NCBI GenBank assembly: GCA_036344135.1
Contig: JAYYUG010000050.1
Span: 1-48,972, forward strand
DNA from: Pseudomonadota bacterium
GTDB lineage: Bacteria > Pseudomonadota > Alphaproteobacteria > MED-G09
Direction: 5' to 3'
DNA: 48,972 nucleotides
The notes under the pieces were generated by a model. It did no database searches and was not told the origin of the DNA. It saw nothing but the letters and a program-made list of their open reading frames with translations. Position 1 is the stretch's first letter; each line of letters begins with the position of its first letter. Made by a program: the position numbers and the translations under genes. Below, piece after piece: positions 1 to 12,453 of this stretch.

Positions 1-1079
1 GGAACCTGAGCCCCCAAATACCCCAACAAAAGACAGTCTAAAACAAATATGAAGAAGAACATCTTGTAGAATGGACGATAACGAGCCGATCTGACTTTCA
101 TTGTGTCAAGCCATGGCAAAAAGAAAAGAACAATTATAGACCCAAACATCAGTAAAACTCCAAATAACTTGTCCGGAACAGCACGTAAAATTGCGTAAAA
201 AGGAAGGAGATACCATTCTGGAACGATATGAGCGGGTGTTAACATAGGATCAGCTTCAATGTAATTGTCAGGGTGTCCTAAAGCATTAGGATTGTAAAAA
301 ATAAAATAACAGAATAACAACAAGAAAACTACGTAAGCAAAGAAATCTTTGACAGTATAATATGGGTGAAAAGCTACAGTGTCCTGCTTTCCTTGAACCG
401 ATACCCCTGTTGGATTGTTGTTACCTGGAACATGGAGCGACCATATGTGTAAGATTACTAATCCAAAAATTATAAATGGTATTAAATAATGTAAACTGAA
501 AAACCTGTTTAAAGTTGGGTTATCAACGGCGAACCCTCCTAACAAAAGTTGCGTCAATGAATCCCCAATTATAGGCAGTGTGCCAACCAAATTTATAATC
601 ACAGTGGCTGCCCAATAACTCATTTGTCCCCAAGGTAAAACGTATCCCATAAAAGCAGTAACAATCATTAGGAAGTAAATAATACAGCCAAGGATCCATA
701 AGACCTCCCTTGGCTCTTTATAAGAGCCATAATACAAACCTCTAAACATATGAATATAAACCGCAAGAAAGAACATCGAGGAACCGTTTGAATGGGCGTA
801 CCTAATCAACCAACCATAATTAACATCACGCATAATGTGTTCAATACTATCGAAGGCTAGTAACGAATTTGGCGCATAATGCATTGCCAGTATTACTCCT
901 GTTATAATTTGAGTGATTAAGAAGAAAGTCAGGATAAAACCAAAAGTCCAAAAATAGTTTAAATTTTTTGGTGTAGGGAATTGTAAAATGTGCTCATTTG
1001 TAAACCTGAGGATTGGCAGACGTGTATCCAACCATCTAGTAAAACTGGTTTTTGCAACATATTCGTAATCGTTATTCAT
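1..1079 (-). CDS. petB: cytochrome b of the bc1 complex (3'-truncated by the window edge; missing from the ORF track)
   Basis: Manual translation from ATG at 1079 gives [23 protein letters not shown]..., followed by cytochrome b motifs ([39 protein letters not shown]). Lies directly downstream of the Rieske gene. Confidence 0.97.
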
Positions 1080-1084
1080 GCTCT

Positions 1085-1606
1085 CTATCCGATCTTTATG
1101 ATGGTATCACTGGAAAATTCATAAGGGGGAATCTCGAGATTAGTTGGAGCTGGCCCTTTTCTTATTCTACCGGAAATATCATAATGCGATCCATGACATG
1201 GGCAAAACCACCCATCATAATCCCCTCGATCGGCAATTGGAATGCAACCCAAATGCGTACAAACACCTACAACAACTAGCCATTCTTTCTTTTTAACTCT
1301 ATCAGCATCATTCTGAGGATCAGGTAGATCTTCTTTATCCTCAGACTCAGCTCTTATTATTTCTTCAGCTGTTCTACGTCTTATATAAACTGGCTTACCT
1401 CGCCAGGCTACCTTTAGGAATCCTCCCTCAGGAACTTCAGAAATGTCAACTTCTATACTAGATAAAGCTTTTACAGAGGAGTCAGGGTTCATTTGATCGA
1501 CTAATGGCCAAACCACTGCAGCTGCTCCAACGGCACCAAAAGTCCCTGTGGTTATATATAAAAAATCTCTTCTTGAAGGCTTATCATCTTCAGGGATGTC
1601 AGACAT
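1085..1606 (-). CDS. petA: ubiquinol-cytochrome c reductase Rieske iron-sulfur subunit
   Basis: Tat motif SRRDFL, TM anchor, Rieske boxes CTHLGC and CPCHGS; SD AGGAG upstream. Confidence 0.98.
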
Positions 1607-1682
1607 TCAAACTCCTAAAAAATTAAGAATCGTAAGATTGTATCGTTTATCTTGATTAGAAAGTAAAGAAAATAGTTGGGGA

Positions 1683-1699
1683 TGCGACATAATTGATCA
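1683..1699 (-). promoter_or_regulatory. possible RegA/PrrA/RegR-type box upstream of petA
   Basis: Minus strand reads TGATCAATTATGTCGCA. The right arm GTCGC, the central TT and the spacing fit the RegR-type box; the left arm is poor. RegA/PrrA regulates petABC in other alphaproteobacteria. Confidence 0.3.
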
Positions 1700-2929
1700 T
1701 CATATCTTAGCCCTTACAATTGACCTCATTCTTTCGATAAGGGAATATTTATCGTCGATAAAATCGGAATCAATCCACCATTTCTCTAGTTCGTCCAAAA
1801 TTTCTCCTACAATTGGGCCCTCAGGTACTCCTGACAACATCACATCTCTAGCTTTTATTGGTAAAGCCGGGATTTCCCAAGAGCTTGCCATTGCAAGAAG
1901 TGCTCTCCAATGTGTTGAATTTGAAATCTTTTTATCTTTAGCCCAAGAAATTCTTATTAGATCAATAAAATTATTGGATCCAAATAAGTAAAGGAATTTT
2001 CTTACTTCCTTAACAGACAAATAGCTTTTTACCTGATTCTTATTTTTTAATAACGTATCAATCCGCTTGTTGTCTTTGTTTGAGAATCTAAAAAGCTCTA
2101 AATTTGAGGATAGATTGTGGGCTTTAGGCATTAAAATGAAAAACCTCAAAAAAATGTCTACGTCAAAAAAATTCTCGCCATCTATATTTATCATTCTTTC
2201 AAAACTACCTGTAACAACTTCACCAGAGTAAATTGTATCTAGAAGACCTATCTTTTTCATTTCAACAATGGTTTTAAAAGAATTATTTGAAGACAAAATT
2301 TTAAAAAATTCTTTTTGAATTCTTTCGGGTGACAGAGTAGTTATTTTATCTTTATGTTTTTTAACAATATTTAACGTTTTTTTGCTTATTGCATTGCCAT
2401 AGTTGCTTGAGAATCTAAAAAATCTCAGAATTCTAAGATGATCCTCATTTATTCTTTCATTGGTATCACCAATAAAATTTATTACCTGTTTTTTTAAATG
2501 CTCAACCCCACTAAAAGGATCAAAAATTTCTCCATCTTGACTCATATAAATAGCATTAATGGTAAAATCTCTTCTCTTCGCATCAATCAGCCAATCATTG
2601 GTGTATTCAACTTCAGCGTACCTACCATCTGTGGATTTATCTCTTCTTAAAGTTGTTATCTCGAAAGTTAAATCATCAATAATTGCAGTAATTGTCCCGT
2701 GTTTGAGCCCAGGAGCCACAACTTTAATGTCTTTTGTCGATAAAATTTTGATAACCTCTTGAGGTTCATGTTTAGTAGCAATATCTATGTCCAAAGTCTC
2801 AAGATTTAATAATGCATCTCTTACACATCCTCCAACATATTTTGCTGCCTCTCCATCTTGATTAAGGAGTTGCATAATCATTTTAGAATTAGGATGATTT
2901 AGAGATGAATTTTTGTACTTTTCAATCAT
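1700..2929 (-). CDS. cca: CCA tRNA nucleotidyltransferase
   Basis: VGGCVRD, DIDIAT, EITTLR, RRDFTINA and EDHLRILRFFRF motifs. ATG at 2929 (MIEKY) preferred over the track's 2941 start. Confidence 0.92.
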   Translation of the reverse strand: MIEKYKNSSLNHPNSKMIMQLLNQDGEAAKYVGGCVRDALLNLETLDIDIATKHEPQEVIKILSTKDIKVVAPGLKHGTITAIIDDLTFEITTLRRDKSTDGRYAEVEYTNDWLIDAKRRDFTINAIYMSQDGEIFDPFSGVEHLKKQVINFIGDTNERINEDHLRILRFFRFSSNYGNAISKKTLNIVKKHKDKITTLSPERIQKEFFKILSSNNSFKTIVEMKKIGLLDTIYSGEVVTGSFERMINIDGENFFDVDIFLRFFILMPKAHNLSSNLELFRFSNKDNKRIDTLLKNKNQVKSYLSVKEVRKFLYLFGSNNFIDLIRISWAKDKKISNSTHWRALLAMASSWEIPALPIKARDVMLSGVPEGPIVGEILDELEKWWIDSDFIDDKYSLIERMRSIVRAKI

Positions 2930-8580: not shown

Positions 8581-9555
8581 TCACAAATCTATTTCAGTTT
8601 TTAACTTTTGCCATGCACTATCAATATTAAAATATATGAGATTAGGTTTATTAATTCTTATAGGACCATAGCCCTTCGATGTTAAATATTGAGAGCACGA
8701 AGACGATTTTTTTTCAGGGGTAATTAAGGAAACAACATCTCCCAAATTAGGTGTTCCGCCTGAAAAAATACCGTTAAACTTTCTAAATAAATCTAATTCC
8801 AGACTGTCATCATACGAAAGATACTCAAAAAGCATTTCAACCTTGTTAATAGCTTCCGATCTAGCTGAAATCGTCCTCAATAATTTCTCCACTGGATTGA
8901 GATTAAATTTATTCCAATCAAGACTTTTAGACGCGAAAATGCAGGCCTCACTTTTTAAAATTATCCCATCATTTAAAACCCTTAAATTATTAGCCTCCAA
9001 TGTTTTTCCACTTGATGTTATATCTACTATAAGTTCTGAAGTCCCAGCTGAAGGGGACCCTTCAGTCGCGCCAGTACTTTCGACAATCCTATAATTATTA
9101 ATACCCTTCTCTTTAAAAAAATTTCTTGTCAGCGTCTCAAATTTAGTAGCAACTCTTAAACGTCTTTCGTGAATGTGTAAAAAATCTCGAGTTACCTCTG
9201 ATAGATCCTGAGTATTGGAAACATCAATCCAAGAATTCGGAATTGCAACAACTACATCTGCTTTACTGAAGCCTAGTTTGGATAGAATGATTACTTCTTT
9301 AGAAATCTTACTATCCAGCTCAGAGATTAAATCCAATCCTGTAATACCTAATTGAACATTACCCGCTAGCAGTTCCATTGCTATCTCATTAGCAGAAAGA
9401 AATCTGATTTTTATATCTTCAAATTCCTTGATATGGCCTGTATAAGTTCTTTGATCTCCATCACGTATGATTGAGATCCCGGCAGAATTTAGGAATTCAT
9501 CCATATCCTCTTGAATCCGTCCTTTTGAAGGTAATGCGATTGTAATTGCTTTCAT
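8581..9555 (-). CDS. hisG: ATP phosphoribosyltransferase catalytic subunit (324-aa form)
   Basis: IALPSKGRI, LGITGLD, RVATKF and GATEGSP..GTSELIVDITSSGKTLEANNL; 4-nt overlap with hisZ. Confidence 0.95.
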   Translation of the reverse strand: MKAITIALPSKGRIQEDMDEFLNSAGISIIRDGDQRTYTGHIKEFEDIKIRFLSANEIAMELLAGNVQLGITGLDLISELDSKISKEVIILSKLGFSKADVVVAIPNSWIDVSNTQDLSEVTRDFLHIHERRLRVATKFETLTRNFFKEKGINNYRIVESTGATEGSPSAGTSELIVDITSSGKTLEANNLRVLNDGIILKSEACIFASKSLDWNKFNLNPVEKLLRTISARSEAINKVEMLFEYLSYDDSLELDLFRKFNGIFSGGTPNLGDVVSLITPEKKSSSCSQYLTSKGYGPIRINKPNLIYFNIDSAWQKLKTEIDL

Positions 9556-10907
9556 TTTAATGGCCTTAAAGATAATGCTTTTTCCAAATTTTCCATATTT
9601 AGTGCAGCTCCTACTGCGGGGATGTCAGTTTTTGAGCCCATTGACCTTATTAAATTATCATAACGACCACCTCCGCCAAGGTGAGTGGATTTCCCTTTTT
9701 GGGAATTAACAAAATCGAAAAGAAAACCTGTGTAATACTCAACCTCTCTTCCCTTTTCAGAAGAAAATTCAGATTTATCAAGATCCACTCCAAGCTCTTT
9801 AATTTGTTCTAACCTTTCTTTGGCTATATCTATCTGTCTTATGAGAGAGCTATCCAAATTTTTTGATATTGATCTTAAACGATCCAAAGCCTTAAAAGGT
9901 TTATCCGAAATAGACAGAAAATCCTTTATAAGATTAACTGTAGCATTTGAAAGCGGCTGTAAAGAGAACTCCTCACCTTTCTGCCTTAATCTCTCCATTA
10001 TTTCTTCGACGCTTCTTCCGACTGGTATTTCCTCAAAAGACATCCCAAGGCTCCTTCTGACTAAATCTGTGGCGGATTCCCTATCAAGTGAATAAACTCT
10101 ACGAGCAAGCTCATTATTGACAGATTTCTTAAAAGACAAATCCTCTAAAAGCACCCTGAAGTCGGATTCATTCCAATACTTTGCTTTTAACTTTTTTCTC
10201 CAAAGATCGGGAAGATCCATAACATCAAGAAAGATTGAGAATAGCGAAACATCCCCCATAAATGTTTGATAATTCTTAAGACCTTCATTTCGCAGCGTTG
10301 ATTCAACTTTATAAAAAATCTCTATCTCAGCAGCTAATTGGTCCTGTTTTCCTATATATTCTAAGCCTGCTTGGCTATATTCTGATGGTCCAGAACTATT
10401 TTCCAATCTGAGCTGAAAAACTTTACCAAAATAGGAATATAATTTCTTTTCCCCTGTAAACCCTTGGTCTAAATAATAAAGGCATGTTGGAATGGTTAAA
10501 TCAGGGCGAAGGCATAATCTTAGACCTTCTTGATCTGAAAAAATAAAAAGTCTATCAGCTACATTTTCACCCATTCTGTCTAGAACTTTTTCTGCTGAGA
10601 TCATTACTGGTGGATCTATTAAATCAAAACCGTCAGTTGAGAGATGTTTAACCATAGAGAGAGATGTTCCTGATAAATATTCTGTTGGATTAGTTTTAAT
10701 AATCTTTGGAACTGTCACTCCCCCAAAAACATCATTACTAATTTGTACTGATCTCTCTTCACATAACATTGCAATCTTAAGATGCAAACGAGCCGGAAAA
10801 CCTTTTTGCCTATAATTAGATACTGCGGAAGGATTAACGCCTAATAAATTGGCAAGTTTTCCTGTTCCACCGAGAGAATTAATTATGTCGTTAACATTTT
10901 TTTTCAT
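9552..10907 (-). CDS. hisZ: ATP phosphoribosyltransferase regulatory subunit with fused N-terminal Cro/YdaS-like HTH domain
   Basis: HisZ motifs LCLRPDLTIP, YFGKVF, QAGLE, EYYTGF and GGGRYDNL; position between hisS and hisG. About 65 extra N-terminal residues, IINSLGGTGKLANLLGVNPSAVSNYRQKGFP, have a Cro-like HTH pattern. Confidence 0.9.
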   Translation of the reverse strand: MKKNVNDIINSLGGTGKLANLLGVNPSAVSNYRQKGFPARLHLKIAMLCEERSVQISNDVFGGVTVPKIIKTNPTEYLSGTSLSMVKHLSTDGFDLIDPPVMISAEKVLDRMGENVADRLFIFSDQEGLRLCLRPDLTIPTCLYYLDQGFTGEKKLYSYFGKVFQLRLENSSGPSEYSQAGLEYIGKQDQLAAEIEIFYKVESTLRNEGLKNYQTFMGDVSLFSIFLDVMDLPDLWRKKLKAKYWNESDFRVLLEDLSFKKSVNNELARRVYSLDRESATDLVRRSLGMSFEEIPVGRSVEEIMERLRQKGEEFSLQPLSNATVNLIKDFLSISDKPFKALDRLRSISKNLDSSLIRQIDIAKERLEQIKELGVDLDKSEFSSEKGREVEYYTGFLFDFVNSQKGKSTHLGGGGRYDNLIRSMGSKTDIPAVGAALNMENLEKALSLRPLK

Positions 10908-10914
10908 ATTATAT

Positions 10915-10931
10915 ATTCATATAATATGAAT
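10915..10931. promoter_or_regulatory. 17-bp palindrome, candidate operator 1, upstream of HTH-hisZ
   Basis: ATTCATAT-A-ATATGAAT, a perfect 8-1-8 repeat with core TTCAT-N5-ATGAA, 7 nt upstream of the hisZ ATG. Confidence 0.55.
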
Positions 10932-10954
10932 TATATTAATAATCAAATAACAAT

Positions 10955-10969
10955 TTCATGAATTATGAA
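10955..10969. promoter_or_regulatory. candidate operator 2 overlapping the hisS stop codon
   Basis: TTCAT-GAATT-ATGAA has the same arms and spacing as the core at 10916-10930, offset by 39 bp. Confidence 0.5.
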
Positions 10970-12453
10970 CTTTTTTTTATTTTTCTTTGAATTTCTGCTA
11001 TTAATTGATCTTTGGAAATTGAAATTTGTGAACCTTTACCAGATCTCCACTCTTCATTATCGTCAATATTTTCCGATAACTCTTTACCCCTAGCAAGATC
11101 TTTAATGGTCACCGTATCACTTGCAATCTCATCTTCGCCTACTATTACAGCAAACTTTGCATTTCTTTTATCCGCGTAGCGAAGTTGAGCTTTCATACCG
11201 CCATCACCTGTATAACATTCTGCAATAATTTTTTCTTTCCTTAGTTGTGAGGCTATTTCGTAGAAAATAGATCTTTTCTCCTTATCCATGACCAATACAA
11301 CAACATCCAAACAGCTATCTTTAAGATTGTCTTCATTCAGTATCGATAAGGCACTTGCCAATCTGCTTACTCCAATTGAAATGCCAGAGGCAGGAACTGA
11401 TACACCTTTCAATCTCTCTATTAAATTATCGTATCTGCCTCCTCCTCCAACAGAACCATAATTATTTAATTTCTTATTATTGGAAAAAATTAAATCAGCT
11501 TCATAGATCGCGCCAGTATAATAGCTGAGACCTCGAACCACTGAAGGGTCAATGGCAATCTGATCTTCTTGATATCCAGAATTTTCTATTATTCCCGAGA
11601 TTGCATTTAATTCACTAACAGCATCAGAAAATTTTTGTGAACCACCAAATTTCACTTCAAGGTTTTCAAGCGCTTTTAAACGATTTAATTTTTTTGTATC
11701 TTTACCATTTTCAAGAAAAGATAGGATTGAAGAGATTTGATTTTTATCGAGACCGGCTCCTTCGGTATAATCACCAGACTCATCCTTCCTGCCCTTACCT
11801 AGCAACAATTCCACAGCGGCAAGACCCAATCGATCAAGTTTATCAACTGACCTCATGACTGACAGATATGTTTTCTCGAAATTATCTTCTGTTGGAATTT
11901 TATTTTGTTCCAAAAGCGCATCAAGAAGATTTCGACTATTAAGACGGACAAGATATTCACCTCTTTTTATACCTACACTTTCTAGCGTATCACAAAACAT
12001 CATGCACATTTCTGCGTCGGATAAAGAATTCTCACTGCCAACAGTATCGGCATCTATCTGTAGAAACTGTCTGAATCTTCCTGGTCCTGATTTTTCGTTT
12101 CTAAACACAAATCCGGATTGGTATCTCCTGTAGGGTTTTGGGAGACTATCAAAATTCTCTGAAACATATCGAGCTAAACCAGCAGTTAAATCGTAACGTA
12201 AAGATAACCAATTCCCATCATCATCTTCGAACGAAAAGACTCCTTCATTGGGCCTATCTTGATCGGGAAGAAAAGAACCAATCATCTCCGAATACTCTAT
12301 CACGCTGGTTTCTAATGGTTCAAAACCATACCCTTGGTAAACCTTCTCAATTGATTCGGTAAGTTTAGTAATCGCAAGGTAATCCTTACCTGAGGTATCC
12401 TCAAATCCTCTGGGTCTTTGAGCTTTCATCTTTTTCTTTTTTCCAGAAGTCAC
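10963..12453 (-). CDS. hisS: histidine--tRNA ligase
   Basis: PRGFED, LRYDLTA, FRNEK.GPGRFRQF.Q.DAD, VRGLSYYTG, GGGGRYD and anticodon-binding domain; GTG start. Confidence 0.97.
   Translation of the reverse strand: MTSGKKKKMKAQRPRGFEDTSGKDYLAITKLTESIEKVYQGYGFEPLETSVIEYSEMIGSFLPDQDRPNEGVFSFEDDDGNWLSLRYDLTAGLARYVSENFDSLPKPYRRYQSGFVFRNEKSGPGRFRQFLQIDADTVGSENSLSDAEMCMMFCDTLESVGIKRGEYLVRLNSRNLLDALLEQNKIPTEDNFEKTYLSVMRSVDKLDRLGLAAVELLLGKGRKDESGDYTEGAGLDKNQISSILSFLENGKDTKKLNRLKALENLEVKFGGSQKFSDAVSELNAISGIIENSGYQEDQIAIDPSVVRGLSYYTGAIYEADLIFSNNKKLNNYGSVGGGGRYDNLIERLKGVSVPASGISIGVSRLASALSILNEDNLKDSCLDVVVLVMDKEKRSIFYEIASQLRKEKIIAECYTGDGGMKAQLRYADKRNAKFAVIVGEDEIASDTVTIKDLARGKELSENIDDNEEWRSGKGSQISISKDQLIAEIQRKIKKSS

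Follow-up and report, generated by a model that had tools for sequence, protein, structure and literature searches.

A predicted Cro-like helix-turn-helix domain fused to HisZ, and conserved palindromes upstream of hisZ-hisG, in marine and freshwater alphaproteobacteria

The window analysed here, the whole stretch of 48,972 bases of contig JAYYUG010000050.1 from an alphaproteobacterium, contains the genes hisS, hisZ and hisG in a row on its minus strand, and its hisZ gene encodes, ahead of the HisZ core, an additional domain that resembles the Cro proteins of prophages. A previous inspection of the letters and their translations, here called the sequence-only reading, had described a 451-residue open reading frame (ORF) between hisS and hisG, in which a phage Cro-type helix-turn-helix (HTH) was joined without a stop to a complete HisZ, and had proposed that the product is a histidine-sensing transcription regulator. 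This ORF is indeed present at 9552-10907(-). It encodes 451 amino acids, starts with an ATG, is preceded by an in-frame stop three codons 5' of that ATG, ends with the stop codon at 9552-9554, and contains the N-terminal peptide that had been quoted (IINSLGG...MLCEER). The distance from the end of hisS to the ATG of hisZ is 55 bp, and this spacer holds two palindromes of the type TTCATA-N3-TATGAA, which lie 39 bp apart from centre to centre and have half-sites with centres 9 bp apart (Table 1). At the other end of the gene, the overlap of 4 bp between hisZ and hisG fits translational coupling of the two.

Table 1. Genes, protein regions and candidate regulatory elements at the hisS-hisZ-hisG locus, in positions of the window
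Feature	Position	Strand	Basis or remark
N-terminal Cro/YdaS-like HTH domain (predicted), residues 1-52	10752..10907	(-)	profile matches, AF2, Foldseek, conservation
Variable linker, residues 53-85	10653..10751	(-)	disorder predicted at about residues 62-79; low conservation
HisZ core, residues 86-451, HisRS-like class II fold without anticodon-binding domain	9555..10652	(-)	
hisG, 324 amino acids	8581..9555	(-)	4-bp overlap with the hisZ stop
hisS, bona fide histidyl-tRNA synthetase	10963..12453	(-)	PF13393 and PF03129 anticodon-binding domain
Proximal operator candidate TTCATATTATATGAA, perfect TTCATA-N3-TATGAA palindrome	10916..10930	(.)	ends 8 nt before the ATG
Distal operator candidate TTCATAATTCATGAA, one mismatch	10955..10969	(.)	overlaps the hisS stop codon
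Candidate sigma-70-type promoter	10930..10959	(-)	-35 ATGAAA 10959-10954, 18-nt spacer, -10 TATAAT 10935-10930

The N-terminal domain is recognised by several profiles. Residues 6-48 resemble the Pfam families P22_Cro (PF14549; E 7e-6, 26.1 bits against a cut-off of 30.2) and YdaS (PF15943; E 8e-6, 26.0 bits against a cut-off of 30), and the best NCBIfam match of this region, at residues 5-56, is NF046037, the 'carph-isopro domain' (E 8e-9, 35.6-36.1 bits against a cut-off of 38). Among the phage protein families, PHROG 8008, a 'DNA binding protein', matches with an E-value of 8e-11. I take the sub-threshold profile matches to be real, with the evidence for the fold coming from structure prediction by AlphaFold2 (AF2) and comparison by Foldseek. 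The AF2 model of residues 1-64, computed from a 65-sequence alignment, has a pLDDT (predicted local distance difference test) of 85.4 and consists of four helices at residues 3-11, 15-22, 26-35 and 39-51, of which the second and third form the HTH, with PSAVSNYRQK as the predicted recognition helix. When this model is compared with the PDB, the top match is Cro from the Xylella prophage Xfaso-1 (3bd1; probability 1.0, template modelling score 0.65, 35% identity over 60 columns), followed by Cro of phage N15, whose structure was solved on operator DNA, and then by YdaS; the E-value of the Xfaso-1 Cro match is just 0.028, because the domain is small. In the model of the full-length protein the same four helices are tied to the HisZ core via a low-confidence linker, in which pLDDT drops below 50 at residues 64-75. 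By these models the N-terminal domain has an all-alpha Cro-type fold with a helix-turn-helix, in agreement with the sequence-only reading. A complex prediction for two copies of the domain, run without controls, gave a score of 0.01 and is uninformative either way.

The conservation of the fused protein is distributed unevenly over its length. Across 14 sequences of the family, 30 columns of the N-terminal domain are invariant, and the mean identity to the window protein in the family set is 0.82 for the HTH, 0.43 for the linker and 0.60 for the core; for 20 distant fused forms the corresponding values are 0.50, 0.15 and 0.25. The recognition-helix residues S30 and N31 are invariant in the aligned fused forms and R33 is nearly so, and the linker varies in length (alignment A4). 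Judged from these alignments, the HTH is the best-conserved region of the fused protein and is under strong constraint.

Most relatives of the domain outside this fusion are short proteins. A profile search of 1.84 billion representative sequences yielded 704 relatives of the N-terminal domain, and of the best 150 of these, 22 are proteins of 354-470 amino acids with a HisZ core, the remainder being mostly proteins of 60-110 amino acids. All 65 sequences of the N-domain alignment A3, which combines the window protein with six family members and 58 stand-alone relatives, match NF046037. A tblastn search of the domain against 50,697 phage records gave only three weak matches, at 40-49% identity. 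The capture of a phage domain, as had been suggested, is compatible with the stand-alone relatives, the PHROG match and the phage records, which do not give the direction of transfer.

The remainder of the protein matches the HisZ family. PF13393 is found from residue 84 onwards, with the core beginning at residues 84-86, and it is the only HisRS-type domain in the protein; unlike in the adjoining hisS, there is no PF03129. The best NCBIfam model for the core is HisZ NF008953 (E 4e-87, residues 84-443, 292.7 bits against a cut-off of 384), TIGR00443 scores 118 against a cut-off of 271.65, and no HisZ equivalog cut-off is reached. However, HisZ models make up all of the top seven NCBIfam matches of the core, with hisS at a lower score (96.9), which makes the fused core a divergent HisZ rather than a HisRS. 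It also matches solved HisZ and HisRS chains by sequence. The core motifs CLRPDLTIP, E..Q.G.E, YYTG and GGGRYD are invariant or nearly so, and two of them, YYTG and GGGRYD, are common to HisRS and the fused core; in HisRS these presumably form the histidine pocket.

The partner genes are those expected of a HisZ-type system, namely a hisG without HisG_C and a separate hisS with an anticodon domain. In the hisG product the catalytic domain is recognised by PF01634 at residues 55-228 and by TIGR00070 at residues 4-207, and HisG_C was not detected in Pfam and NCBIfam searches. The last 100 or so residues of this HisG (about 225-324; window 8581-8883(-)) match no Pfam or NCBIfam family and may represent an unrecognised domain.

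The join between the two parts is neither an artefact nor a chance event. Contigs X4 and X11, assembled from sequencing runs of two other studies, span positions 10400-11200 with one to three substitutions and without insertions or deletions, so that sequence continuity over the junction, on which the sequence-only reading depended, holds in independent material. A word-indexed search with residues 1-80 returned 34 proteins, of which 30 are 451-455 amino acids long, all with PF13393. The window's order consists of one single family, and 24 genomes of it were searched besides the window's own (G000, 1.34 Mb). In 20 of these the match runs from query residue 1-4 to residue 445-450 without stops, and in three genomes of other families the matches begin only at residues 88-91. 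In all, 21 of the 25 genomes of the order carry the domain; of the other four, two contain a hisZ fragment cut off by the contig edge, and the remaining two, which are 83% and 93% complete, have no hisZ match. As a separate observation on the core, contigs of runs X9 and X11 diverge from the window at position 10402 leftwards, both into the same unlike sequence, which suggests a strain variant or a recombination boundary within the HisZ core. No run with usable RNA coverage of the locus was found, as X16 covers just 10771-10901 and is probably DNA.

The fusion extends well beyond this family. Scanning species-representative genomes with the peptide pattern [VI]SN[YW]R[KRQ]xGFP gave 72 loci, with record titles that name Rhodobiaceae, the OCS116 cluster, the PS1 clade, Parvibaculales, Parvibaculaceae and isolate IMCC14465. 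A HisZ core follows in frame at 69 of these; of the other three, one is cut off by the end of its contig and two stand alone as genes of 87-88 amino acids. A hisG-like ORF follows downstream in 65 of the 69 fused loci, the other four being short (3.1-3.8 kb) with at least three of them ending at a contig edge, and a hisS-like ORF lies upstream in 67. In a second order, which includes genome G298, the domain occurs in 53 of 58 genomes, once in each, in 39 of the 40 high-quality genomes and in 13 of the 14 genera. On these genome counts, two orders of marine and freshwater alphaproteobacteria have the fusion as a fixed feature. To look for the same architecture in relatives had been proposed as a check, and the view of the fusion as a local oddity has to give way to that of an order-wide trait.

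In a sample of the class (301 genomes), a contiguous match of N-terminal domain and core was found, among the matches listed, only in families f1 and f121. Two genomes of this sample, G064 and G262, are unpublished; they count in its tallies only, with no claim built on them, and a stand-alone homologue of 81 amino acids from G064 (L033) was used only in cross-checks. I considered NF046037 as a class-wide marker of the fusion and rejected it, as its strongest matches belong to another protein and none of 12 fetched loci had a HisZ core. These strongest matches are at the N-terminus of an ORF of about 440 amino acids with a proline-rich stretch, beside hemC-like and hemD-like ORFs (for example L023, G165:C12, ORF 466-1788(-), with neighbours identified by eye from translations), and a HisZ-type profile barely detects this protein. 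A match to NF046037 over the cut-off is present in 60 of the 301 genomes, in many cases in long open frames.

The history of the fusion was examined in an IQ-TREE phylogeny of 74 HisZ cores, with 45 fused rows, 27 unfused rows, one with another HTH, and a hisS outgroup. Of the 69 fused loci it includes 44, after removal of near-duplicates and of L071, L104 and L108, which are truncated by their contigs. The fusion needs two changes on this tree, and no starred branch forces more than one.

The spacer palindromes show a similarly consistent distribution. The distal site, which has its single mismatch in the window, is perfect in a sister genome (L004), and all 20 family loci (L003-L022) hold both palindromes despite a diverged surrounding spacer. 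In all 20 loci of the OCS116 type (L049-L068) the two sites are offset by 39 bp from start to start, at -62/-23, -60/-21 or -59/-20. When the 330 bp upstream of each of the 69 fused genes are taken together (22.8 kb), they contain 53 perfect sites, 31 with one mismatch and 36 with two, while the remaining 311 kb of these loci contain no perfect sites, none with one mismatch and 14 with two. In 200 first-order Markov resamples of the upstream DNA the mean numbers were 0.005, 0.32 and 5.0 for zero, at most one and at most two mismatches, against 53, 84 and 120 observed. At least one site is present in 63 of the 69 loci and at least two in 46, including genomes of 55-58% GC. At nine unfused hisZ loci that were examined, no site was found at two mismatches or fewer.

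Genome-wide scans give the same picture. The window's genome contains two perfect sites in its 1.34 Mb, one being the proximal spacer site, and in the 25 family genomes taken together the hisZ pair makes up nearly all perfect sites, with none for a reversed-pattern control. In the second order, five near-complete genomes were scanned, and all of them have one or more sites (at most one mismatch) in the 500 bp upstream of HTH-hisZ, with two or three there in three of the genomes; no other locus has more than one, and sites elsewhere are singletons in numbers about as in the control. In these comparisons the palindromes are conserved, specific to the locus and co-occurring with the fusion.

A wider regulon was considered and dropped after scanning the whole window genome for the motif, as the other sites are single, coding or narrowly conserved. 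The second perfect site of this genome (C39:5478-5492) lies between a GlcD-like gene and a putative pair of porin and ammonium transporter, 126 bp upstream of a protein of 215 amino acids with a signal peptide that is followed by an ammonium-transporter-like gene. It is kept only in the same-genus sister genome G001 and is hence uninformative. A near-match beside hisD in G000 and G001 is inside a coding region and follows from the peptide sequence, and the extra perfect sites in other family genomes are located inside long ORFs (G024 and G016) or are single sites at unrelated loci (G003 and G023).

A consensus scan places a candidate promoter, with 10 of 12 consensus matches, in the spacer, such that the right half of the distal palindrome is the candidate -35 element and the candidate -10 element abuts the proximal palindrome, by which the start site would be covered. 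No intrinsic terminator was found in the cis-element analysis. At gathering thresholds Rfam detects no family in the window, His leader and tRNA included, in line with the sequence-only reading, which had noted that no his attenuator leader was visible.

A second fusion of an HTH to HisZ occurs in family f156, to which genome G179 belongs; there a different NF046037-type domain and a longer linker precede the HisZ core in the same frame. It is present in nine of nine genomes of this family. In eight of them the match extends from residue 1-7 to residue 491-493 in one frame (seven at 75-76% identity and G179 itself), and in one it is split over two contigs. The f156 spacers carry another motif, TGTCCYG/CRGGACA, which is often palindromic; their 1.6 kb of upstream DNA hold 24 sites, compared with 7 in 32.9 kb. 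In the hisS-hisZ spacers of L148-L155 three sites are conserved, located at the hisS stop, in a central palindrome and 9-26 nt before the ATG. In the HisZ tree the f156 protein nests among unfused forms, which suggests a separate fusion event, though with weak support (85, unstarred).

How could these elements act together? The fused protein would serve as the HisZ subunit in the HisG-HisZ ATP phosphoribosyltransferase and at the same time as a transcription factor, whose N-terminal Cro-like HTH would bind the TTCATA-N3-TATGAA palindromes of the hisS-hisZ spacer. HisZ and HisRS cores dimerise, so the core would supply the HTH dimer, and HisZ oligomers would present at least two HTH domains to the palindromes; the 9-bp distance between the half-sites is as expected for a dimer of HTH domains. 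The two sites would span the candidate -35 element and the -10 element with the start site, and because both candidate promoter elements would be covered, binding would repress hisZ-hisG, which is the only operon with paired sites in the genome. That the sites are bound by this HTH and not by another protein, and that the effect of binding is repression, I infer from the comparative sequence data. Elsewhere, HisZ is the histidine-sensing subunit through which HisG is inhibited allosterically. As HisZ senses histidine there, and as YYTG and GGGRYD are kept here, histidine is the obvious candidate for the signal; by this analogy, histidine bound in the HisRS-like pocket would be likely to bring about feedback repression on top of the known allosteric inhibition.

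These steps are not equally secure. Binding of the palindromes by the HTH, with autoregulation of the hisZ-hisG operon, seems probable to me on the comparative evidence. The whole reading, which includes histidine as the co-repressor, I can hold only tentatively, as something close to, though short of, an even bet. As for the regulator that the sequence-only reading had proposed, its transcriptional part is strengthened by locus-specific palindromes wherever the fusion is found and by none at the nine unfused hisZ genes, and its histidine-sensing part stays conjectural. Finally, a single histidine-induced change in the HisZ oligomer might both inhibit HisG and place the HTHs on the paired operators, an arrangement that would have arisen at least twice, with two types of HTH and of operator; this is possible, but I regard it with some doubt.

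Several observations weigh against autoregulation by the fused HTH. The N-terminal domain scores under all three curated cut-offs (two of Pfam and one of NCBIfam), and 6 of the 69 fused loci show no site at two mismatches or fewer. Outside the OCS116-type family the spacing of the sites varies from 15 to 89 bp, their distance to the start codon from about 20 to 230 bp, and their number as well. In the genome scans the other his genes carry no site, so that control would reach the first step only. The promoter scan found three sites where 3.2 are expected in shuffled sequence, which makes the candidate promoter a pattern match and not functional evidence, and its -10 hexamer, read by eye, is weak in the other two genera. 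Moreover, all fused genomes come from few related lineages, so that the joint occurrence of motif and domain does not count as independent evidence; the palindromes could also be bound by an order-specific regulator whose gene is located elsewhere.

This last concern leads to an alternative in which the palindromes belong to another regulator or process, the N-terminal domain serves in protein-protein contact or in tethering to the nucleoid, and the association of the two reflects shared ancestry. As all carriers are related, motif and domain could have been co-inherited, and besides the low profile scores, the matched YdaS family is labelled a 'toxin' in Pfam. However, in each genome the motif is all but confined to this locus, which means that a dedicated local regulator must bind it, and the locus encodes no HTH other than the fused one. 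The putative recognition helix and the half-site are both nearly invariant across cores that share about 25% identity, and in the unrelated HTH-HisZ fusion of f156 another palindrome occupies the corresponding position, a finding not easily explained if HTH and palindrome had nothing to do with each other. I therefore consider this alternative improbable. Even less credible, and very unlikely indeed, is that the long ORF is not the actual product, owing to a mis-assembly or to an internal start, from which a plain HisZ would be made, either alone or next to a small HTH protein produced separately. In favour of this, the ATG of the fused hisZ has no visible Shine-Dalgarno sequence in front of it, but the independent contigs show no insertion or deletion, the matched frames of 20 family genomes and 69 species loci contain no stops, and most family loci have the stop three codons before the ATG. 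In addition, the internal methionine that had been named as a possible start (SMVKHL) is not conserved, with I or L in other genera, and the N-terminal domain is the most conserved part of the protein.

More serious is the possibility that the protein does bind DNA and autoregulates, in response to a signal other than histidine. HisZ that is free of HisG could shut the operon and thereby balance the subunits, or ATP, phosphoribosyl pyrophosphate (PRPP) or adenosine monophosphate (AMP) could be sensed. All the evidence from the cis-elements applies here just as it does for histidine. The sites occur only at hisZ-hisG and at none of the other his genes, which suits a circuit at the level of the subunits as well as one at the level of the pathway, and the two genes appear translationally coupled through their 4-bp overlap. 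Sensing of free as opposed to HisG-bound HisZ would account for the data just as well as sensing of histidine would. On the other hand, the core keeps motifs that it shares with the presumed histidine-binding region of HisRS, and feedback by the end product is the common logic of enzymes that catalyse a first step. Autoregulation by another signal is therefore rather unlikely in my judgement, although it is to be reckoned with. Binding of the palindromes by the fused HTH, with autoregulation of hisZ-hisG, appears to be the most economical reading of the data.

In histidine biosynthesis, transcriptional control by attenuators, by T-boxes and by HisR is understood, and the present locus offers a concrete candidate pair of regulator and operator. 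Should the reading be true, HisZ would join the short list of proteins with an aminoacyl-tRNA synthetase (aaRS) fold that double as repressors, and would be the first non-catalytic allosteric subunit that carries a DNA-binding domain. It would take the place that RNA attenuators and separate repressors have in other bacteria, and with it the transcriptional control of histidine biosynthesis would be defined for the first time in these abundant marine alphaproteobacteria. The carriers are of the OCS116 and PS1 types with genomes of about 1 to 2.1 Mb, in which a regulator within an existing subunit would spare a separate gene. The NCBI names that were looked up for fused proteins are plain 'ATP phosphoribosyltransferase regulatory subunit', so the putative regulatory role is hidden in the annotation. 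For practical use, the candidate operator of 15 bp and the domain of 52 residues could form a compact candidate part for a histidine-responsive switch.

In the literature, with subscription journals and supplementary files outside the coverage, I found no description of an HTH-HisZ fusion, no paper using the name 'carph-isopro', and nothing on the control of histidine biosynthesis in these lineages. The fused HisZ is probably a metabolic protein that doubles as its own repressor, which is a known kind of regulator, in a version that is apparently undescribed. The closest functional analogy seems to be with BirA, the biotin protein ligase and bio repressor of Escherichia coli, in which an N-terminal winged HTH precedes a class II aaRS-like ligand-binding core. 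Oligomerisation of the BirA core presents two HTHs to a palindromic operator, and its metabolic and repressor roles compete. Both proteins combine in one chain an N-terminal HTH and an aaRS-like core, and in both cases a palindromic operator, here a candidate, is located before genes of their own pathway. However, BirA is an enzyme and its co-repressor is its own reaction intermediate, whereas HisZ is a non-catalytic allosteric subunit, its HTH is of the Cro type, and its candidate target is its own operon hisZG. The same features place the fused HisZ beside the trigger enzymes of the BirA, PutA and NadR type, as it likewise unites metabolic protein and DNA-binding domain in a single chain and, by comparative evidence, has a candidate operator before its own pathway genes.

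With the canonical HisZ of Lactococcus lactis (1z7m), Bacillus halodurans (3od1) and Psychrobacter arcticus (5m8h) the fused protein shares a HisRS-like core and an adjoining hisG without HisG_C. The solved chains are 344-400 amino acids long and align only from query residues 84-117 on, leaving the HTH uncovered, and the nine unfused loci have no palindrome. The N-terminal part resembles the all-alpha Cro proteins (3bd1, N15 Cro 6on0, P22 Cro PF14549) and YdaS (8co2, PF15943) in its four helices over some 55 residues, and as in these proteins the putative target is a short palindrome; those are stand-alone prophage proteins of 60-75 amino acids, whereas here a housekeeping metabolic protein has the domain as its N-terminus. 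The dedicated regulators of his genes differ in other respects. HisR is a separate protein of the TrpR family, with less than 100 amino acids and described mainly in Gram-positive bacteria, and the his attenuator and the T-box are RNA elements (PMC9413887), whereas the fused HisZ would act as a protein, with no RNA leader in the window. What HisR, attenuator and T-box would have in common with it is the dedicated control of his genes by the supply of histidine, although none of the three is part of the enzyme complex (PMC9413887).

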